Source: a virus (Duplodnaviria; Caudoviricetes). Taken from it: 64,000 bases of DNA. The DNA lies in the IMG/VR virus record IMGVR_UViG_3300050034_000334; one strand, written 5' to 3'. A program made the translations under genes and the position numbers. Under the pieces are notes generated by a model. That model was not told the origin of the DNA, did no database searches, and was given only the letters and a program-made list of their open reading frames with translations. Shown piece by piece: positions 25,018 through 37,200 of the stretch (positions are counted from its first letter, which is position 1; every line of letters begins with the position of its first letter).

Positions 25018-26007
25018 ATGACGAAACTGCCTTTTGGACACAAAATCTCGCAGGCTAATCCAACATGGGATGAAGTGTGCCTTGAGATGATTCTGGAGAA
25101 GTACCCGGACTGCGACCAGAAAGCAGTGGAAAACTATCTGAAATTTGTAGCGGATGGAAAACAAGTAAATGGAAAATTAGAAGGTCATCATACCTTGATG
25201 AGAGCTGATTTTCCTCAGTATATAGACACACCTGTTAACATCGTTAAGCTGACAGCACGCAATCACTTTGTAGCTCACTACTTGTTAGCAAAGGCGGTTC
25301 CATCATCTTCCAGTATTCAAATCACTTTTTATCTCATGGCCAACATGAAAAGGGCTATGTATCTAAAATTGCAAGAAGTTTATAAGATGGCAGATGTATA
25401 CGAAGCCTCTAAACTTCACATACCTTCGACAAAGGGGTTCACTCCAGTTTATAACCCAGATACTAAAATGGTTGTACTCATGTCTAAAACAGATCCTGTA
25501 GTGGTTTCAGGACAGTTTAGACATCACACAACAGGAACTACTTCAGTGAGAGACAAGCAGAGGAACTGTTTTCGTGTTCCCAAAGACGACTCTAGGATAA
25601 TTTCCGGAGAATTACAACCAATCAACAAAGGAAGAAAAGTTCGTATGAATACAGTAACGGGAGAAACTGCTTCTATGATTGCTGGAGATGTCAGGCTAGA
25701 AGATCCCAACTGGGTTCATCCCTCTACAGGAAAAGTAGCTGTAGTTGATTCAGAAGGAAATACTTTTTCTGTCTCAAAAAATGATTCTCGTTTTCTTTCA
25801 GGTGAATTACGTGGTGTAATGTCAGCTGCCTCTGAGGATACTAGAAAAAGAATCGGAAATGCTCAGTTAGGTAGACATCCTTCTCTGGAATTGAGAAAAT
25901 TGTGGAGTAAGCGACGTAAAGGACGGGTTGTTTCACAGAAGACAAGAGACAAAATCAGTGCCTCTCATTTTCTTATGCATCAGAAAAGGAGAGAAAATGT
26001 CATTTAA
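25018..26007 (+). mobile_element. free-standing HNH homing endonuclease
   Basis: EGHHTL...FP...NIVKLTARNHFVAH; four ~31-aa repeats; NUMOD3-like tail. Confidence 0.88.
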
Positions 26008-26942: not shown

Positions 26943-28976
26943 ATGCGTAAACTTTCTCAACTGAAACAGGCTCTCTTGAAGAAGGAAGCTGATCTTGACA
27001 TGCTTGACGACCAGATCATGTCTCTGCCGACTTCTTCAGTCAAGTTTGACTCCCTTGCCCAGAAGCGTGAGGACATGGAAACCGATATCCGTCAGCTTCG
27101 AGAGGGCATCGAGGTTCTCAATGCTTGGGACACTCTCAAGGGCGGCGATTGGTCAGATGAGATGAAACAGTCTCTCGGCGAAATCGATCCGTTGGTCGTG
27201 GAAATGGCGACCGGCGAGGCTGATGAAGGAATGGGCATGGATGATTTGGGTATGGGTGCTCCTCCCATGACCGACTTCGCACCTGAAGCTCCTCTGCCTC
27301 CTCCTGCACCAGCTGTTGAACCTCCTCCCCTGGAAGAGCCTGTAGCACCTCCGCCTGTTGAAGAAAACACCATGGATGAAATTCCTTCCGGTGATGAACT
27401 TGCCGGCGAAGAGCCACCGGCGGAAGAGCCACCTGTCGAGGAAGAACCTCCTGCTGAAGAGGCACCGATTACGGCATCAAGCAAGAAATCCAACTTCCCG
27501 ACTCCAAGTAAGAAAGGCACTCCGGTGCCTACCGCTCAGAAGAAAGGCAACACAACCATGGCGACTGCGACCGAAACCACGAAGTCTTCTTCTCTTAAGG
27601 ATAGAATCGCTGCTATCAAATCAAAGAGAGCAGAAGCGATCAATAAGGAAGCACAGACTAGAGTCGCTTCCGCTTGGACTGTTGCTAAGACTCTTTTGCC
27701 CACAGCCCCTGCAACCATTCAACAGAAGCTAGCAGAATCTCTTCTGGCGAATACCACCAAGGCTCTCAAGGCCATCTGCCGGCAGACAGCGAGAAATGCT
27801 GCTTTCCAGAAGACCTGCGAGGCGATCGCGTCGGTCACCAAGACCACGATGAATGACCTCATGGAGAACCCAAGCATTCTTGCCAGTGAAGAGAGTGCTG
27901 TGAAGTCTGAATTGAAGGGTGATCCCAAGAGTGCCACCACGAAGAAGGCTGACGACCGCAAGGACGCTGGCCCGGTGCCTCCTGCTTATCCCGAACCCAT
28001 CCGCAAGGAACCTGCTGAGATCGATGCCGGCAAGGCTGGCGATCGTGAAAAGGACACCGTCGACAAGACCATGAGCGACCAGAAGGTCACGCCCAAGGAA
28101 GCAGCCAAGACCAAGAAGGCCTGCTCTGCCTGTGGCAAGGATCACCTGGAAGGCGAATGCTCGATGGCGCCAACAGCGTCCAAGAAGACCAAGAAGGCCG
28201 GTCCTGAGGACATGGCTCCCCCGGCTGCAGGCCCCACGGCTCCTCCAGTTGAAGAAGGCGGCGACATGCCTCTACCTCCTCTGCCGGAAGAGGGTGAAGG
28301 CGAAGAGAAGCCTGAAGGTGAGTCCGAGGAAGTGGTTGGCGACGAAGAGAAGCTCGAAGTTGTTGAGCAGATCGACGAAGTCATCCAGGACATCGAACAG
28401 ATCAAGGATGACATCGAGGAGAATTCCGAAGAGCTCAACCTTGAAAGCATCTTCGACAACGACAAGCTCGAGGACAAGGAAGCATCTCTCGCCAACAATG
28501 GCAACGTCACTGCCGGCGAAGACGACAATGACTTCCTACCCAGTTCAGCCCAGAACATGGAAGCCAGCATGGAAGAGTCTCCCATCGGTGACATGTTCGA
28601 CCTGACTGCCTCCGATGCTGACCCGATGGCTCGTCTCTTGGGCAGCACCAAGTATGCCGAAGTGGACGCGTCTCTGTCCAAGGTCGTGAAGCCTGGGGAT
28701 ATCGCTCAGACCTTCAAGACTGATGCCGTTGGCAAGGATCCTCGTGATAACGAAACCGATCACGAAGATTCTCTGCTGACTGACATCCTCAAGAGTCTCG
28801 ACCAGGACGACTACGACACCACTCGTGACCAGACTTCGCACCAGGAAGAGCCCACCGAGGCCAACACCAAGGTCGGCACCAAGAAGTCCATCACCAAACT
28901 GAAGACTGTGGTTGCGGCGGCTCCTGCTGCGGAATCCAATCTGGCGTCTCTGCTGTTCAGCGACGACGACATGTAA
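26943..28976 (+). CDS. scaffold/internal head protein
   Basis: 677 aa; very acidic, Pro-rich and coiled-coil; between protease and capsid genes; many K-x-A motifs. Confidence 0.65.
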   Translation: MRKLSQLKQALLKKEADLDMLDDQIMSLPTSSVKFDSLAQKREDMETDIRQLREGIEVLNAWDTLKGGDWSDEMKQSLGEIDPLVVEMATGEADEGMGMDDLGMGAPPMTDFAPEAPLPPPAPAVEPPPLEEPVAPPPVEENTMDEIPSGDELAGEEPPAEEPPVEEEPPAEEAPITASSKKSNFPTPSKKGTPVPTAQKKGNTTMATATETTKSSSLKDRIAAIKSKRAEAINKEAQTRVASAWTVAKTLLPTAPATIQQKLAESLLANTTKALKAICRQTARNAAFQKTCEAIASVTKTTMNDLMENPSILASEESAVKSELKGDPKSATTKKADDRKDAGPVPPAYPEPIRKEPAEIDAGKAGDREKDTVDKTMSDQKVTPKEAAKTKKACSACGKDHLEGECSMAPTASKKTKKAGPEDMAPPAAGPTAPPVEEGGDMPLPPLPEEGEGEEKPEGESEEVVGDEEKLEVVEQIDEVIQDIEQIKDDIEENSEELNLESIFDNDKLEDKEASLANNGNVTAGEDDNDFLPSSAQNMEASMEESPIGDMFDLTASDADPMARLLGSTKYAEVDASLSKVVKPGDIAQTFKTDAVGKDPRDNETDHEDSLLTDILKSLDQDDYDTTRDQTSHQEEPTEANTKVGTKKSITKLKTVVAAAPAAESNLASLLFSDDDM

Positions 28977-29002
28977 ACCCAGTAAAACCAGTTACATCAC
29001 AG

Positions 29003-29035
29003 GGTCGGCTCAGATTAACCTCTGAGCCGATTCTA
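29003..29035. terminator. hairpin between convergent scaffold and endonuclease genes
   Basis: Perfect 10-bp stem TCGGCTCAGA (29005-29014)/TCTGAGCCGA (29021-29030), 6-nt loop. Confidence 0.65.
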
Positions 29036-29659
29036 TTTGAAGTGAAGACAGTATCTTCTATGTCCTCCATAAACTCCCTTGGTGACTTGAATGAACTTCG
29101 CTCCACATTTAGGACAGGTGTAATCATGCAATTTAGTATTCTCAGTTAAATTCACTCTTGTAGCAACGGAAGATTGAGACTGTTTTCTGGGGATATTCCA
29201 ACTGTTAGATATTTTGTCCTTGTGATCCTTGGTTTTTGGTACTCCAGTAAGTTTATCAGATAATGCCTTGGCTGCTTTTCGATGAATTTCTTTAGTTCCT
29301 TCAGGATCGTCAATCCACTGCTGTTTCTTGAATTGACTCAGCTTTCTTTTGGTCTCTTCGTTGGCTCGACATCCGTGACCACCGAGAGTGAGATTGTACC
29401 CGATCTTGGGATCAGATGAACGAAGAAGAATGATCCAGAGAGTTTCAAATTCGTTCAACTTGTCTATACTGGAGGTTTCACAAAGAAGTTCCATAGTGAA
29501 ACTTGACTCTCCATATTTTCTCATTGCTTTGTACAAATAGGAATTATCTCCATATTTAGCATTTTTGACATGCTGATTCCATCGTTCTCTCAGTGAAAGA
29601 ACAGTTTGGCCAACATAGAATTTTCCGTTAACGAGATTGGTGATTAAGTAGACGCACAT
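29033..29659 (-). mobile_element. free-standing GIY-YIG homing endonuclease (antisense in the head operon)
   Basis: CVYLITNLVNGKFYVGQT...ERW...FETLWI...GYNLT; strand checked by hand. Confidence 0.9.
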
Positions 29660-29835
29660 GATTACTATGGCCTAAGTAGTCGATTGATACGGGCATTATC
29701 GCTAATTGCCTAAAAAACTGGATTACAACCCCCATAAGTGTAGGATGGCTGCTGGTCATCTATAGATCTTGTCTTAGCTTGACTGATCTGGATGGCTGAC
29801 AAATCAAAACCAGACTATGTAGCTGAGATTCAACC

Positions 29836-30318
29836 ATGTTGAAACTTGACTATTACGGTCAGAACGATGGAACCACGGTTCCAAACGTCACCCTCACAGG
29901 TGACCCCGGTACTGACCAGCTCACGTTGACCAATGCAGGTTACTTGGGCGGAAAGATCATGGCGGTCGTAGGCACTTACTCCGACGGCTCTGCTCTTATC
30001 GCTCCCTGCGATGGCAACACCATGTCGCCCTATGGGACACTCATCAATGGCCCCGGTGAATTTGCCGGCGCTATCGGTCCCTCTGGCTCCAAGAAGGCCC
30101 CTGTCGTCCGCTCCATGTGGAAGGGTTCGGTCGACAATCAGGCTTATGACACAACCAAGCAGTACGTGGTCGGCACTCCGCTGTACGCGGGTACTGGCGG
30201 CGCGGCTGGACTCTACACCAATGCAACACCTGGTGGAGTTGCCAAGATCGTTGGACTTGTCACAGCAGTCCCAACTCAGCAGAACTCTTTCCTGCTGGGC
30301 GTCGGATCACTGATCTAA
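29836..30318 (+). CDS. capsid decoration/cement protein
   Basis: 160 aa, Gly/Thr-rich beta protein directly upstream of the major capsid gene; highly biased codons. Confidence 0.6.
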   Translation: MLKLDYYGQNDGTTVPNVTLTGDPGTDQLTLTNAGYLGGKIMAVVGTYSDGSALIAPCDGNTMSPYGTLINGPGEFAGAIGPSGSKKAPVVRSMWKGSVDNQAYDTTKQYVVGTPLYAGTGGAAGLYTNATPGGVAKIVGLVTAVPTQQNSFLLGVGSLI

Positions 30319-30358
30319 CCCAACGCTGCTCTTAAAGAGAGAAATCGGAGAAATTCAA

Positions 30359-31492
30359 ATGGCTACTCTTTCGAGAACTCAGCAGCAGACAGCGCAGTTG
30401 GGTCAGTTGCTGAAAACCGCAGGCGGACGTCAGAAGCTCGCAGCTTCTCTCGGACCCTCCCTGAGACGCCGCCGTGACTATATGTCGATTGCCCGCAAGG
30501 CACTCATGGTGGAAACCCTTCCGGATGGCGCACTTCCCATCTACGACAAGGAATTTGACGCGACTGGTAAGTCGTTCGTCGAGGCCTTTGTGGTTGGTGA
30601 AGAAGGCGGCGACATTGTCCGGGTAACCAAGCCCATTCGTGTGACGGTTCCGACGTTCGAAATCGTTGCCAATCCCATGATCCCGATCACCCAGATCAAG
30701 GAACGTCGCTTCGACCTCGTTGCCCGTTCTCTCAATCTGGCCAAGGCAGAAGTGGGCGCGACTGAGGACGGCTATGTGTTTGGCCTGTTCGACGCCGTCG
30801 CAACCGCAGCCACAGCGGCGACCCTCGTTGCCGGCACTGGCTCGACGGACTACGTTTTCAACGAAGACCTCAACATCTTCGTGGCGACGTCCGGCATCAC
30901 CACTCCTCCCGTTGCTTGGGTCAGCGGCGGACCCTTTGCTGTTGGTGCTTACACGACGGGTTCCGATGGAAACCTCTATGTTTGCATCAAGGCAGCAACC
31001 ACACAGAACCCGGTAGTGGGCGGCGGCGGTTATGCAGCTGGCTACTGGCTGTTTGTCGGCACCGACACCTTCGCTGTCAAGGGAATTGACGTGGACTCGA
31101 TGGCTGATGCATTTGGCCAGGTTCAGCGCCATGACCTTTCGGTGGCCTATGTGTTCTTCAACCCGCGCGACTATGTCGACCTGTTGAAGTGGACCGATGC
31201 GAACATCGACCGTGAGACGCAGCGCAAGCTGTTGAAGACGGGCGTGATGGGATACCTCTGGGGCGCCACTCTGCTCCAGTCTCGTAAGATCAACTATGGT
31301 GAAGTGTACGTTCTGGCCGATGCCGAGTTCTTGGGCGTCATCCCCGAGCGTATTCCGCTCACGGTCATGTCAGCCGACCGTCCGGACCTCCGCCAGATCG
31401 GCTTCAGCATCTTCGAGAATTTGGGCTTCCTTGTTTTCAACCCGAGCGGAGTCCAGCGCATCAACGTAGTACGTGGCACCGGCAACGTTTAA
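30359..31492 (+). CDS. major capsid protein (HK97 fold, Bxz1-like) with an inserted CBM5/12-like module
   Basis: LGPSLRRRRDY...ETLPDGALPIYD, VPTFEIVANP and ADAEFLGVIP...IFENLGFLVFNPSG match my recall of Bxz1-type capsid proteins; follows protease, scaffold and decoration genes. Confidence 0.88.
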   Translation: MATLSRTQQQTAQLGQLLKTAGGRQKLAASLGPSLRRRRDYMSIARKALMVETLPDGALPIYDKEFDATGKSFVEAFVVGEEGGDIVRVTKPIRVTVPTFEIVANPMIPITQIKERRFDLVARSLNLAKAEVGATEDGYVFGLFDAVATAATAATLVAGTGSTDYVFNEDLNIFVATSGITTPPVAWVSGGPFAVGAYTTGSDGNLYVCIKAATTQNPVVGGGGYAAGYWLFVGTDTFAVKGIDVDSMADAFGQVQRHDLSVAYVFFNPRDYVDLLKWTDANIDRETQRKLLKTGVMGYLWGATLLQSRKINYGEVYVLADAEFLGVIPERIPLTVMSADRPDLRQIGFSIFENLGFLVFNPSGVQRINVVRGTGNV

Positions 31493-31507
31493 CCATCACC
31501 TAACCAT

Positions 31508-31545
31508 CTAGAGCCTCTCTTAATCGGGAGGCTCTAGCTGTCTTC
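31508..31545 (+). terminator. intrinsic terminator after the major capsid gene
   Basis: 10-bp stem CTAGAGCCTC/GAGGCTCTAG (plus 2 inner pairs), followed by CTGTCTT. Confidence 0.6.
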
Positions 31546-31593
31546 AGAACAATAATTTCCCCTAATTGGCAAAACCTATAGTATCATGAATTC

Positions 31594-32727
31594 ATGAACA
31601 GCGTTATCAAACAAAGCCTCACTTCCATTCCTCACGATCCTGTCTGGGTCGACACCTACCTAGAATTCATTACCAACACTCCTACTCCCACAGAATCCTT
31701 CGACAAGCACCACATCCTGATGGAGAGCATCTTCCCTGACTTCCGCAGTCTCACCAAATTCCCCTGGAACATCAAGCGGCTTTCTTATGCTGATCATCTC
31801 ATCGCTCACTATCTACTTCGCAAGGCCATTCCTTGTGGAGCAACCAACGGAGCATTCCGCCTCATGGTGGGCCTCAGATTCGGCGAGCTACGTGCCAGCG
31901 GTTACGATCTTGAACTTCTTTCCGACATCGCAGCAGAATTTGAACTCATCCGTCGCATGAACGATTTTTCCATCAAGGGTTACATCAGAATCTATCGCGA
32001 AGACGACGTCACTGTCTGCAAACCTAGCCAACTCTCTAACTATGAAGCTGAAGGTTGGAGCTTAGTCTACCCCGAACAACAGTGGATTTACAAAGATGAC
32101 GAAGAACGTCGTGTTCTGAAAACTGATCTTCCTCCTCTCCTCCTCGATGGTTGGGAATGCGGAAGATGCTATCGTGCTACTGATTCCACTAAACAGAAAC
32201 TTTCCGATTGGAGTTTAGCCAAGCATAAACAAAGAACTGCAGAACCTAATGGTTATTCCTTCATACCTAAAGGAGATCAGCACCATCGTAGAGTCCTAGG
32301 CATTTCGGAAGAAACCAAGCAAAAGATCCGTGAAACTCTCATGGGGCGTACTCTAGCACCAGAGCATGCCGATAAGGTTCGTGTTGCTACAATTGGCAAA
32401 TCCTGGACCTGGTCCTTGGAATCCAGAGCAGCCAAGTCCCAATCCATGACAGGAGAGGGCAACAATCGCTTTGGCAAGCCTGGTTACTGGAAAGACAAGA
32501 CCAGACCTCAGTCAACTCGTGACAAAATGTCCGCTTCTCAATCCGCTCGCACTGATAATGCCTTCTGGAAAGGTAAGGTCGGTCCACACAAAGACCATCT
32601 TCAATCTCAGAAATCTCGTGACCAGATAGCTCTCAAACTCACAGGTAGAATAGCTTCTGAAGAAACTCGTCGTAAGATGCGTGAGGCCCACGCTCTAAGA
32701 AAGAAACTATCAAATCCAGTAAAGTGA
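31594..32727 (+). mobile_element. free-standing HNH homing endonuclease with NUMOD3-like repeats
   Basis: DKHHIL...FP...NIKRLSYADHLIAH; ISEETKQKIR, QSTRDKMS and SEETRRKMR repeats. Confidence 0.88.
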
Positions 32728-32759
32728 GCAGTATTACTATCTCGAGGAGCACAAAATCA

Positions 32760-33302
32760 ATGGCTCAGAAATCCTACTTGGCAAAGAGACAGATCTACTT
32801 TTCAATTGGAGCAACTTATGTTCGCCCTGGTGACATCCTAACCTACGAAGAGAGTGTGTCAAGAATGACCATCTTCCGTGGTGGAGTCCTGGTCGGCTCA
32901 GTTCGTCAGACAGCGACCGGAATCAAGAGTCTCCTAGCACAGAAAGTTCCTCTGATCGAAGAGATCAAGCCAACTCCGGTTGCTCCGGTTGTGGTGAAGG
33001 AAGAGCCCAAGGTTGATCCCGCTGTGCCAGAAAGATACATTGGCCACGAGGCAGAGTACTTGGCGGACACACAACGGGCACAGACCATGGACCCAGTGGT
33101 TGTTCCTGTTCCTGTAGAGAAGCCGATTGTCCTGGCTGATCTGACCAAGGCCAAGATTGCGGCTCATGCCAAGACCTTTGGTCTGGAAATTGATCCGGAG
33201 GCTTACACTAAGATTGATCTGATTGCTCGTGTGGAAAAGCACAAGGAGTCACTCAACAATCTGCCGACTATCGCCGATGATACGAGCCAAACCGACTCTT
33301 GA
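32760..33302 (+). CDS. hypothetical virion protein with a C-terminal HeH/Rho-N-like domain
   Basis: ATG 32760 after GAGGAG; C-terminal LADLTKAKIAAHAKTFGLEI...TKIDLIARV. Confidence 0.55.
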   Translation: MAQKSYLAKRQIYFSIGATYVRPGDILTYEESVSRMTIFRGGVLVGSVRQTATGIKSLLAQKVPLIEEIKPTPVAPVVVKEEPKVDPAVPERYIGHEAEYLADTQRAQTMDPVVVPVPVEKPIVLADLTKAKIAAHAKTFGLEIDPEAYTKIDLIARVEKHKESLNNLPTIADDTSQTDS

Positions 33303-33328
33303 GTTCTTAAGAGAGGGCATTGTGCTCG

Positions 33329-36187
33329 ATGGCAACTGTTGACACCAACCTTGATTCCGCCATATTCACTGGCAACTCTCAGTTTGTTTTCAGTGGATCC
33401 AATCTGTATGTGGTAGGAAACACCACAACGACTGGAAGTCTGGATGTATTCCTTTCAACAGATTACGGATACACCTTTACAAACGTCGGTTCTGTGACCG
33501 TTGCTGGAGATACAACCAAGGGATTTGATCCTGCTGTGTGCCTTGACTCCGGCGGGATTCTTCGCATCGTTGGAACTATCTATGGCTCAGGTGGTTCCAC
33601 CTCCCTAGGGATCTACTTCTTCAACATCAGCACACACACGTTTGCCAGCAACTCTCCATTCATAATTGTAGCGGGATCTCAGATTGGCCGCGACTACGAT
33701 GTCGCGATGCTGCCTGACTTGACGGTGATGGTCGTGTCCTCCTTGCTGAATCAGGGAGGTTTCTACGGAGAGACTGTGATGGCCTATTTCCTAAGTGCCA
33801 GCACTTCTTCTCCTGCAGTTTTGAGTTCGCATGAACTCACTTCAAGTCCATTCAGATCTGGAAACACTTTCGGAACTGTCTCGACTTTGGCAAATGCAAC
33901 TGGAGTGGAAGTCTATCTAGGATCTCACAACAAGGTTTTCACCTTCACTCCGTTCCCAGCATCCATCACTCTTTACAAATACACCCAGAGCACCACAACC
34001 TGGGCAACCAGCACCTTGACTACCATAATGTGTCAGTACATCGATGATAGAATGACCATCATTGGCGATGGCACAAAGCGGTATCTGAGTCAGTGTTTCT
34101 TCACTCAGACCAGGTACAGTCTTGTTGGAAATGCCCTGCTGGGATACAGCGCGGATTCAGGAGCCACTTGGTCATGGGAATCCTATCTTGGAACAGGACT
34201 GCAATCAATCACTGATCCTGTGATCAGTGTCGCGCCTGAAGGATTGCGTTTTTCTTATGTGGAGAAGAACTTCACTTCCACCAACACTGGCAATGTGATG
34301 AACGGAACGCTCCGTGTCAAGCTCCTGGGTGTCGCTCCTTGGTCCATCACGATTGATCCGACTTTCTACAATGTCATCACCACTTCACGTCTGAGAGGAA
34401 CCAAGGACAAACTTCTTGCAGGAATGCTCTATGCCCTGATGGGAGAAACCACCTCTGGAGATGGTCAATTCTACACAGGATACAGCGTTCCACCAGTAGC
34501 TGCCATCGCTACTTCTACGATTTCTCTTCCAAGAGGAAGCACTCTAGTTTTGGACGCATCTGCAAGCTACGATCTAAACGGAAGCCCTCTACGTTTCACC
34601 TGGTCCACCGACAACGCGGTTGTACATGTAACCCCGATTCCTGACATTACTGGAGCAGCGAATACAGCCGCCATCTTCACTCCAACGAATACAGCTGCTC
34701 CTCTTCAAACAGCCCATGTGAGCGTGGTTGTAGAAGATCTCGATTTGAATGGCAATCCTATCCATCCCTGGGATCCAGTTCATCACACACCTGCAAGTGA
34801 ATTGGCAACATGTACGGTCACGATTCCTCTTCTTCTGGCCCCGGTTATCGGATATCTGTCACCGTTCAATGTCTCTAGAGGAACAATTGTAAGGATCGCT
34901 CCAACAATCACTGACGATGCTGTTGGAGTGACTCTCAGCTATGCTTGGACTCAGGTGTCTGGCACCACGATTGCTCTGAGTGACACAGATTTTCCATTCC
35001 TGAATGTTCTAACTCAGGCGGCTCTGCTAACAGGTGAAAGCCTGGTGTTCTCTCTATCTGTAAGTGATGGAATCAATCTTCCAGTTTTCAGAAATTTCAC
35101 CATCAATGTCGCTGCTCATGCTTTTGCTGAGCCGGATACTTTCATCAGTAGAGGAGTCTGGAGCGGCAACATCGCCCAGCGTAACACAGCTGGTTCCTAC
35201 CTCTCTGATGAGAGTTGCCTTGCATCTTCTCTGAACAATTACAAGAAGTACACCATGATTGATGGCACTGAAAGAACTCTGGTTGTCACGCCAACAGACA
35301 TCATGGTGTTTAACTACAGCGGTGCCACTGATACCACTCCACAGCAGGTGATTCTTCGCAGATTCTTTCCTCCTGGATTTCTGACAGTAGTTGACGGTGT
35401 TCAAACTGAAGACGACTACACGATCATGTTGGCAAGTGACGGGAATCTCTACAAGTACACCACAGCCCCGGCCATCAACACTGACAACTATGATTCCATA
35501 ATCTACTTGCCTTCTTTGACCTCCATGACCTTTAACAAGTTGCTGTGCACCTACAATTTCAACAACACTCGAGTTCTGGCACTCAGTGGACCTCAAGGAT
35601 GCTACCTGCTCCAGATCGACAATGCCTACTTTACCACGACCATTGGCATGGCAATTTCTCCTTCATCCAAGCTCCTGTTTGGAGGATCGAATGTAGTCTG
35701 GATTCGCACCAACAACGTAGAGTCAACCATTCAGGGGAAGGTTCTGCTTGGAACTGTCCAAAATGGCAACACCTACGAAACTCTGATCGATTTGAGCAAG
35801 AGAATTATCCTTGGAACATGGGAATCGGCCAATTTGAGCAACGCGATCGTAGACTCAGGGGAAATTCTTTTCAATGCAGAGTCGAGCTACATGGGATTCC
35901 CATCTCCTCCAGTTCTGGTTTCTGCGTTGGTTGGAACCATTTCGCATTTTATCGCTCCTGTGTGGATCACCTGGACACAGAATCGCCCAGACCTGATTTC
36001 ACTGTACAACCTCTTTACCTCGAATGATGGAGGAACTTCTTGGAGTGAAGCTCTCACAGTGACCAACGGCAACCAGTTGTCTGCTATTCTCCCAATGACT
36101 CAGGGTTACACCTACCAGCTTCGAATGCGAGCAATTAACACTGATGGAGTGAGTGGATGGTCAAATGTACTGTCCGTGTCCATCTAG
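33329..36187 (+). CDS. large virion surface protein: Asp-box beta-propeller, PKD/Ig-like domains, FN3
   Basis: Asp-boxes STDYGYTF, SADSGATW, SNDGGTSW; LDASASYD...FTWS and YAWTQVSG (PKD-like); YQLRMRAINTDG.SGWSN (FN3). Confidence 0.65.
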   Translation: MATVDTNLDSAIFTGNSQFVFSGSNLYVVGNTTTTGSLDVFLSTDYGYTFTNVGSVTVAGDTTKGFDPAVCLDSGGILRIVGTIYGSGGSTSLGIYFFNISTHTFASNSPFIIVAGSQIGRDYDVAMLPDLTVMVVSSLLNQGGFYGETVMAYFLSASTSSPAVLSSHELTSSPFRSGNTFGTVSTLANATGVEVYLGSHNKVFTFTPFPASITLYKYTQSTTTWATSTLTTIMCQYIDDRMTIIGDGTKRYLSQCFFTQTRYSLVGNALLGYSADSGATWSWESYLGTGLQSITDPVISVAPEGLRFSYVEKNFTSTNTGNVMNGTLRVKLLGVAPWSITIDPTFYNVITTSRLRGTKDKLLAGMLYALMGETTSGDGQFYTGYSVPPVAAIATSTISLPRGSTLVLDASASYDLNGSPLRFTWSTDNAVVHVTPIPDITGAANTAAIFTPTNTAAPLQTAHVSVVVEDLDLNGNPIHPWDPVHHTPASELATCTVTIPLLLAPVIGYLSPFNVSRGTIVRIAPTITDDAVGVTLSYAWTQVSGTTIALSDTDFPFLNVLTQAALLTGESLVFSLSVSDGINLPVFRNFTINVAAHAFAEPDTFISRGVWSGNIAQRNTAGSYLSDESCLASSLNNYKKYTMIDGTERTLVVTPTDIMVFNYSGATDTTPQQVILRRFFPPGFLTVVDGVQTEDDYTIMLASDGNLYKYTTAPAINTDNYDSIIYLPSLTSMTFNKLLCTYNFNNTRVLALSGPQGCYLLQIDNAYFTTTIGMAISPSSKLLFGGSNVVWIRTNNVESTIQGKVLLGTVQNGNTYETLIDLSKRIILGTWESANLSNAIVDSGEILFNAESSYMGFPSPPVLVSALVGTISHFIAPVWITWTQNRPDLISLYNLFTSNDGGTSWSEALTVTNGNQLSAILPMTQGYTYQLRMRAINTDGVSGWSNVLSVSI

Positions 36188-36201: not shown

Positions 36202-37200
36202 ATGGGATTGCTAAACAAGAGCGAGCTTCTCAAAACCCTGCGCGCAATTATGGGTTTCGATGTGAATGCTTCGCCCTTCGCGGCCTTGGAACTGAAATCC
36301 GATGAACCCTGTTTCTATCGCAGTAGCCACACCGGCTTCATTCAATCCAAGAACTACGGATCTGGAAATCACACCCACATACTTCTTTCTCACCTGAGAG
36401 ACTCTCTGCAGGTTCTCAAGGATGAAGCTGTTGAGCTTTCCTTGGACGGATCTGGGGTGTTGAAACTCTCGAGCACAGACAACGTCTACGAATCCGAGAT
36501 TCGAGTTCACACAGTTCGTCCTGAACAGGCTGGACTGAAGACTCACAACATTGGCGACATCGTTCATCGGCTTCCTGCTCACGTATTCCAGGACTTTGAT
36601 GCCAGACCGTTCATCTGTGCTGCCCAGCCAACTCTGATTGACGGAAGAATCATGATGCCTACTCAGTCAGGAATTGTCGTATGGCAGGGTCCACAAGATC
36701 TCATTCCTCTCTCGCTGTATCCAAGAGAGACCATGCTCAAGTTCATTTCGAGCTCTCAGAATTTGGAGAAGGTTGTGGTCTCTTCCAAAGGATACTGGGG
36801 TGCGGTGGCTGGAGGTCTGATCTCGTTTATTTCTGGACACACTACCGGAGACACCCTCTACAAGAGTTACAACGTCTCTGGAAAGCCTTTGGACACGTTG
36901 CCGGCTGAACGTCTAATTGTGTCACTCGAAGCGGCGGCTGGTATGTGTGGAGACAACAAGATCGAGATCGACCCGTTGCTGGGTGTTGTAACCCGAGACA
37001 CCACTGGGAACCAAAGCAGATTTGCCTTCGGTAGCCATCAGGGTTGGAGCAAGTTCGCGATCACTGGAAGAACGGCCAAGGTCATTGCTGACGCCTTGCG
37101 TCAGTCATCGGACACAGACACTGCTCTGGTCTATGTTCCCACCAATCAGTCTATGCGACTGGTTCGAGGTAATTGGCAAGTGAACTTCCGAACCTTCTGA
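36202..37200 (+). CDS. DNA polymerase III beta-clamp-like processivity factor
   Basis: 332 aa; N-terminus LNKSELLKTLRAI..SPF and LRDSLQVLKDEAVELSLD..LKLSS loosely follow DnaN; a DnaX gene is present in the window. Confidence 0.5.
   Translation: MGLLNKSELLKTLRAIMGFDVNASPFAALELKSDEPCFYRSSHTGFIQSKNYGSGNHTHILLSHLRDSLQVLKDEAVELSLDGSGVLKLSSTDNVYESEIRVHTVRPEQAGLKTHNIGDIVHRLPAHVFQDFDARPFICAAQPTLIDGRIMMPTQSGIVVWQGPQDLIPLSLYPRETMLKFISSSQNLEKVVVSSKGYWGAVAGGLISFISGHTTGDTLYKSYNVSGKPLDTLPAERLIVSLEAAAGMCGDNKIEIDPLLGVVTRDTTGNQSRFAFGSHQGWSKFAITGRTAKVIADALRQSSDTDTALVYVPTNQSMRLVRGNWQVNFRTF

Follow-up and report, generated by a model that had tools for sequence, protein, structure and literature searches.

The major capsid protein (MCP) encoded in the window, which is the whole 64,000-nucleotide stretch of viral DNA analysed here, carries an internal insert that is a divergent module of the CBM5/12 fold and belongs to a tail-fiber subfamily with the consensus W..S...Y..G..V.GSDGN.Y...NPV...YW. 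Our preferred reading is that this module is a surface-displayed ligand binder, probably for a glycan, and we put the probability of this reading at about one half. The source of the window is a 187-kb IMG/VR record (IMGVR_UViG_3300050034_000334) that is estimated to be 60% complete, and the coordinates of the features are collected in Table 1.

Table 1. Features of the capsid gene and its surroundings (positions in the window; residue numbers refer to the MCP)
Feature	Position	Strand	Basis or remark
Major capsid protein (MCP) gene, 377 aa, HK97 fold, phage G / Tunturi 5 type	30359..31492	+	ORF, homology
Inserted hypervariable cassette, residues 183-241, between conserved SGITT and GID	30905..31081	+	Alignments, nucleotide-identity drop
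CBM5/12-fold core, W187 to G234	30917..31060	+	Profile, profile-profile, fold
Predicted long spine helix, residues ~109-150, N-terminal to the insert	30683..30808	+	DSSP, low-confidence AF2 (H116-158)
G-loop-like AGTGST (158-163) and strand NIFVAT (172-177), leading into the insert	30830..30889	+	Alignment, AF2 model
First A-domain helix after the insert, residues ~245-256, MADAFGQVQRH	31091..31126	+	AF2 H245-256, highly conserved
160-aa ORF directly upstream of the MCP	29836..30318	+	48% identical to Tunturi 5 gp333
GIY-YIG homing endonuclease gene	29033..29659	-	Different HNH-type gene there in near-identical phages
HNH/NUMOD3 homing endonuclease gene directly downstream of the MCP	31594..32727	+	Present in L006/L007, absent from L008/L009
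Third homing endonuclease gene, HNH/NUMOD3-like, in the head-gene block	25018..26007	+	

The capsid gene and the site of the insert

The open reading frame of the MCP is intact. Two stretches of its product matched phrog_2522, a PHROG family of major head proteins (E 1.8e-43), and the profile of the MCP family matched the solved structure of phage G gp27 (PDB 6WKK) with an E value of 6.8e-60 over profile positions 8-304. In terms of fold class, homology to HK97-fold MCPs of the phage G type was found over the whole core. A tblastn search of 50,697 phage records returned Tunturi 5, one uncultured 485-kb phage, and Bacillus phage G gp27 as the only relatives. Because of these relatives and the 6WKK match, the MCP is placed in a phage G / Tunturi 5-like family, and the Bxz1-type label that the initial annotation had given to the capsid is unsupported. 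Over the aligned parts, the window protein is 75.7% identical to the major head protein of Tunturiibacter phage Tunturi 5, the closest cultured relative of the window phage. Tunturi 5 is a jumbo myovirus of 309 kb that comes from tundra soil, has Acidobacteriota as hosts, and has a head of ~113 nm (PMC11924767). The MCP family and the gene order are common to the window, phage G gp27, and Tunturi 5 gp334 (319 aa), but the latter two proteins are without the insert and have a short loop alone in its place. Pfam hmmscan of whole MCPs found no family for the window protein, for the second allele, or for the insert-less homolog P0005 (L005, 1295-2239). A weak match to PF25209 (Phage_capsid_4) had been recorded for insert-less homologs including P0005, and it was absent from the present hmmscan.

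The initial annotation had proposed that about 55-60 amino acids are inserted in this protein and had named an alignment with homologs as a check, and the insertion was borne out. Among the 120 best homologs, 118 are 299-335 aa in length, and just two are longer, P0004 with 375 aa and the cluster of the window protein itself with 377 aa. When sets of 14 and 56 sequences were aligned, residues ~178-241 lay opposite gaps in every aligned sequence but P0004, and the flanks of the insert are 75-92% identical across those aligned homologs. Compared with P0005 (314 aa), its nearest relative without the insert, the window protein is longer by a net ~57 aa, in frame, and the GC content of the insert (0.60) equals that of the gene. 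The peptide that had been quoted for the module is present and starts at P184 (nt 30908), but it has 51 residues rather than 50 and ends at G234 (nt 31060, not 31057).

Two other origins of the insert were rejected. An assembly chimera was ruled out because the gene, or part of it, recurs on seven independent contigs from other samples (L006-L010, L017, and L018), and the insert is therefore not an assembly artefact. An intein or intron was also ruled out, since the insert is in frame and ~57 aa in length, has no intein junction residues, and is accompanied by no Rfam intron in the region 28500-33500.

The module is 57-64 residues long and sits in a variable loop whose length and sequence vary naturally across the MCP family. 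This loop is preceded by the spine helix, the G-loop, and then a strand, and it is followed by the first helix of the A-domain. From the sequence pattern of HK97 gp5, we take the predicted spine helix to be the counterpart of HK97 helix alpha3, and the AGTGST, NIFVAT, and MADAFGQVQRH segments are presumably equivalent to the HK97 G-loop, strand F, and helix alpha5, respectively. Two further indel hot spots were observed in the same protein. The second is at residues ~68-70 (window ~30560-30570), where many homologs have 8 extra residues after residue 69, and the third is at the C-terminus (after ~31460), where the tails of the homologs vary by 0-25 residues.

Relationship of the insert to CBM5/12 modules

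A direct check of the segment against Pfam CBM_5_12 (PF02839) was negative: in hmmscan, neither the insert nor the complete MCP nor the second allele matched any Pfam-A family at E<=10, and a six-frame scan of the record of the window phage returned nothing for PF02839. The gathering score of this family is 26.2 bits, a level that the insert does not reach. A word-indexed search with residues 176-242 retrieved its own protein only.

Profile searches, which are more sensitive, connected the insert to a family of binding modules. A profile made from two inserts matched 73 proteins at E<=1e-3 (best 4e-12) among all 1.84 billion representative proteins, many of them with several matched stretches, and P0141 was the sole MCP among these 73 representatives. 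PF02839 was above or near its cut-off in 4 of the first 10 carriers scanned. In P0126 the insert-profile match (228-283) coincides with a Pfam PF02839 match (230-269, 39.3 bits), and P0133 scored 42.6 bits. When 60 segments taken from the profile matches and the three MCP inserts were scanned singly, CBM_5_12 was matched by 25 of the 63 (best 4.8e-07), and any other family by one member at most. The profile of the module family matched the chitin-binding domain of Bacillus circulans ChiA1 (1ED7, E 7e-4) as well as the CBM of a Vibrio chitin deacetylase, GbpA, CbpD, and a phage short tail fiber. The hhalign comparison of the three MCP inserts with five Pfam-certified repeats gave a probability of 97.2%, a value that is not fully independent, as the repeats themselves were found with the insert profile.

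The predicted structure led to the same family. The AF2 model of the insert had a pLDDT of 83.9, and the top 50 PDB matches in Foldseek were nearly all CBM5/12 modules of ChiB, chitin deacetylases, and ChiC, together with phage tailspikes (TMq 0.65-0.76). With VIA, an aligner that is independent of Foldseek, chitinase chitin-binding domains (ChBDs) ranked first, with Z values of 7.3-6.2 and an rmsd of 1.2-2.1 Å over 45-48 residues. In a library of viral structures, the insert matched tail fibers and entries with ChiA1_BD or chitin-binding type 3 names, and no named capsid protein. The CBM5/12 reading of the initial annotation is thus upheld by the profile homology, the hhalign result, and the fold, but not by a direct Pfam match. 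Two other matches were set aside. The teneurins, which were the top PDB matches of the family profile, are spurious and reflect an alignment of the GSDG.LY turn with NHL/YD-type repeats, and eIF6, found when a single insert was compared with PDB sequences by phmmer, is a chance match (E 0.94), with nothing else found in that search.

The insert has the W...Y..G..V...G..Y...P...W pattern and the small beta fold in common with the CBM5/12 modules (PF02839, ChtBD3; 1ED7, Serratia ChiB, and the Vibrio deacetylase). It differs from them in that its GSDG turn is one residue longer, the Gly-rich loop before the last Trp is longer, and the module lies within a capsid protein instead of being appended to an enzyme. 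The nearest sequence relatives (E to 4e-12) are the CBM5/12-like repeats of phage tail fibers and tailspikes (Pa193 fiber 9B45, phiAB6, and Pam1; P0124, P0170, and P0177), which share both their fold and the GSDG subfamily consensus with the insert. The core residues conserved in the module family are W187, F/Y193, G196, G201-S-D-G204, Y207, N217-P218, and Y229-W230. Tail PHROGs were matched by 8 of the 10 nearest carriers, and carriers of the family hold Peptidase_S74 or Phage-tail_3 domains. The repeats lie in tail proteins, often in tandem, whereas the MCP insert is a single copy. No second copy of the module was detected in the 187-kb record (~60% complete), either by single sequence or by family profile, and an intragenomic donor was therefore not found.

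In a hand alignment to the ChiA1 ChBD, Q216 lies at the position of W687 (Q216/N217), which we take to be the key binding Trp of that domain; the loop is three residues shorter and has no aromatic counterpart, and HMMER itself aligns just the N-terminal half of the insert to 1ED7, the rest of the alignment being a manual extension. Two tyrosines, Y225 and Y229, are located in the variable Gly-rich loop of the insert. Since the counterpart of W687 is apparently missing, classical chitin binding is not indicated, and chitin or cellulose specifically should not be assumed as the ligand. The module may bind carbohydrate.

Alleles of the module and their exchange

Alleles were sought with insert-derived patterns in IMG/VR and in JGI metagenome contigs, and three were distinguished: allele A in the window, L006-L010, L017, and L018; allele B in P0004/L004, L011, and L019; and allele C in P0141/L003. 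In a tree of the MCP core from which the insert columns had been removed, the insert-bearing rows were mutual nearest neighbors, and only 1 of 500 shuffles was equally clustered. The tree is compatible with a single gain of the module in a rare, tightly clustered MCP sublineage, which belongs to a small set of soil jumbo phages.

The comparison of the window with L003 gave a nucleotide identity of 0.934 in the N-terminal flank, 0.522 in the insert, and 0.966 in the C-terminal flank, with sharp edges at SGITT and GID. At codons that specify the same amino acid in both, synonymous differences were found in 14 of 27 inside the insert and in 16 of 194 outside it. The raised synonymous divergence of the insert argues that the alleles have a separate, older history, and that they were exchanged by recombination and did not diverge in place. 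The sequence comparisons thus indicate that the module has been exchanged as a cassette. A diversity-generating retroelement is an unlikely source of the variation, because the alleles differ by indels and at ~48% of all bases, not at adenines alone.

Within allele A, the closest variants also differ in the module. In L009, all 4 amino-acid changes relative to the window, and 1 indel, fall in the insert, and outside it there are 16 changes, none of which alters an amino acid. L008 has one amino-acid change, again within the insert, and 13 synonymous changes outside it. A rough dN/dS for the insert, taken from the closest variant, is ~0.4. This value shows that constraint is relaxed, or that a fold which is maintained is under some diversifying pressure, and it is no proof of positive selection. 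The reading frame and the fold-defining residues are kept in the three alleles, which differ by ~50% in DNA, and purifying selection on the fold is therefore indicated. Essentially the same residues are conserved across the three alleles as in the tail-fiber family, so that there is no sign of an additional docking surface specific to the MCP.

The three homing endonuclease genes of the window are all free-standing and lie within the head-gene block. In L006-L010 the site of the GIY-YIG gene is occupied by a different HNH-type gene (313 aa; L006, 573-1514, minus strand). The flanking endonucleases may promote exchange of the module, and it is plausible that recombination driven by them aids the cassette exchange. 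In MCP codons 349-377 (window ~31403-31489), L008 and L009 have 8-13 closely spaced differences from the window, all of them synonymous; this run adjoins the polymorphic endonuclease site and resembles a co-conversion tract or a target-site polymorphism. The large ORFs nearby (26943-28976, 32724-33302, 33320-36187, and 36202-37200, all on the plus strand and including proteins of 677 and 955 aa) matched no PHROG at E<=1e-3.

Possible roles of the module

If the module is a surface-displayed ligand binder, it would project from the outer surface of the capsid on every subunit, probably in well over a thousand copies per head of ~110 nm, and would act as a weak multivalent adhesin similar to Hoc or to the Ig-like domains of other capsids. 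Virions would thereby be held on the capsule or EPS of the host or on polysaccharide in the soil, and the variable surface of the module would track different ligands. Several observations favor such a role: the relatives of the insert are binding modules of receptor-recognising tail proteins, the module is hypervariable on an invariant backbone, it retains no obvious interface specific to the MCP, and insert-less relatives, among them Tunturi 5 and G, form capsids. Against it stand the missing direct Pfam CBM_5_12 match, the lack of the key Trp, and the purely structural use of this fold in T4 gp23 and gp24. The AF2 prediction of the full-length MCP (56 close homologs) was poor, with a pLDDT of 50. 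In T4, a domain of the outer surface docks at the G-loop and at the spine-helix/A-domain junction (PMC9546572), which gives indirect support to an external location of the module.

Weak multivalent binding at the head surface has been proposed in the same way for T4 Hoc, the BIG2 domain of phi29 gp8, and the CBM of the cement protein gp25 of cyanophage A4 (PMC12002296, PMC3185693). In these cases the domain belongs to a separate decoration protein or was added at the C-terminus, and its fold is Ig-like or of another type, whereas the window MCP has an internal CBM5/12 insertion.

More tentatively, and at less than even odds, the capsid itself may be an adhesin with swappable specificity, in which every MCP copy displays a glycan-binding module derived from tail fibers and the alleles of this module are exchanged between otherwise identical jumbo phages, perhaps with the aid of the flanking endonucleases. 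If this is true, then the head surface, and not the tail alone, would be under ligand-driven diversifying selection, and the head would decide whether virions stick to Acidobacteriota EPS or capsule or to soil polysaccharide.

The main competing explanation is a structural one, in which the module is a clamp or cement comparable to the I-domains of T4 gp23/gp24, P22, and phiKZ, docking on a neighboring subunit or capsomer and reinforcing a very large shell with no sugar binding. The insert model does match the T4 domains (gp23, 6UZC, residues 162-226, Z 4.8; gp24, 1YUE, residues 83-142, Z 4.4). The T4 gp23/gp24 insertion domain has been described as chitin-binding-like and stabilises capsomers (PMC3185693); it is attached through linkers equivalent to the E-loop, stands out on the exterior of the capsid, and rests on the neighboring subunit at its spine-helix/A-domain junction, thereby locking the capsomer (PMC9546572). 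The insert of the window MCP is near that same junction, whose surface the T4 I-domain covers on its neighbor, and the apparent absence of the canonical ChBD binding Trp also suits a clamp. The interface of a clamp, however, should be kept: the MCP cores are 97-100% identical in amino-acid sequence, but the module is just ~45% identical between these near-identical backbones, every amino-acid change between the closest variants falls inside it, and nearly all relatives build capsids without it. A complex prediction for the insert-less core (P0005 alignment) and the module had a score of 0.00 and counts neither way. On balance, we regard a clamp as possible but unlikely.

The T4 proteins also bear on how novel the architecture is. 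The initial annotation had called an insertion of this type in the capsid protein itself unusual, but T4 gp23 and gp24 already carry such a domain (PMC3185693, PMC9546572), and since the T4 I-domain has the same fold, an MCP with a domain of this kind is not new in kind. Both consist of ~60 residues with the same fold on an HK97-fold MCP. The two differ in their site, which in T4 is in the E-loop, N-terminal to the spine helix, and in the window MCP is C-terminal to the spine helix and the G-loop; the insert thus has the fold of a T4-type I-domain without the E-loop position. Unlike the T4 I-domain, the insert has kept a CBM5/12-like sequence, is hypervariable, and is missing from close relatives. 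What is new is the placement of the insertion behind the spine helix and G-loop, its recent and probably single gain, and the cassette-like hypervariability.

The module could also be a tolerated passenger, that is, a tail-fiber module that entered a permissive surface loop by illegitimate recombination and has little or no function. It would then persist and be shuffled because the locus, with its homing endonucleases, recombines often. The natural length variation of the loop, the relaxed constraint on the insert, its restriction to a rare sublineage, and the homing endonuclease genes flanking the MCP, which are polymorphic in presence or absence, would all fit such an origin. The retention of frame and fold residues across the three alleles argues against it, as does the expectation that a useless domain of 57 residues at over a thousand copies per virion should vanish fast, and we consider a passenger quite improbable. 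A variable decoy, by which the module would diversify the surface against recognition of the MCP by a defence sensor, a grazer, or an antibody-like binder, draws on the hypervariability on a conserved backbone only and is very remote, given that no defence system or sensor is linked here, that the conserved MCP core would stay exposed, and that the module family is a typical tail-fiber binding module.

Extra domains on HK97-fold capsid proteins, such as those of T4, P22, phi29, and phiKZ, are ancient and fixed, and for this reason their acquisition and first role are hard to study. Here, the same capsid protein occurs with and without the module at 85-92% identity, which makes a natural before/after pair for the gain of a surface domain and bears on whether such domains serve adhesion or stability. 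The donor family, the CBM5/12 repeats of tail fibers, is still recognisable by sequence, and at least three divergent alleles occur on near-identical backbones. The cultured relative Tunturi 5, grown on Tunturiibacter, could serve as a test system, and the permissive loop could serve as a display site. To return to the ligand-binder reading that we prefer, a module that binds polysaccharide would make the capsid a carrier of adhesin in over a thousand copies per virion, with a bearing on retention in soil and on encounter with the host.

In terms of other head-surface proteins, the initial annotation had assumed display of the module without a separate Hoc-like protein, and this is unproven. 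The 160-aa ORF directly upstream of the MCP is conserved, and it lies exactly where phage G has the decoration gene gp26, so that it may itself encode a decoration protein; BLASTP found no similarity between this ORF and phage G gp26. The Tunturi 5 homolog of the ORF, gp333, is annotated as a 'tail fiber protein', a public annotation that is possibly wrong.
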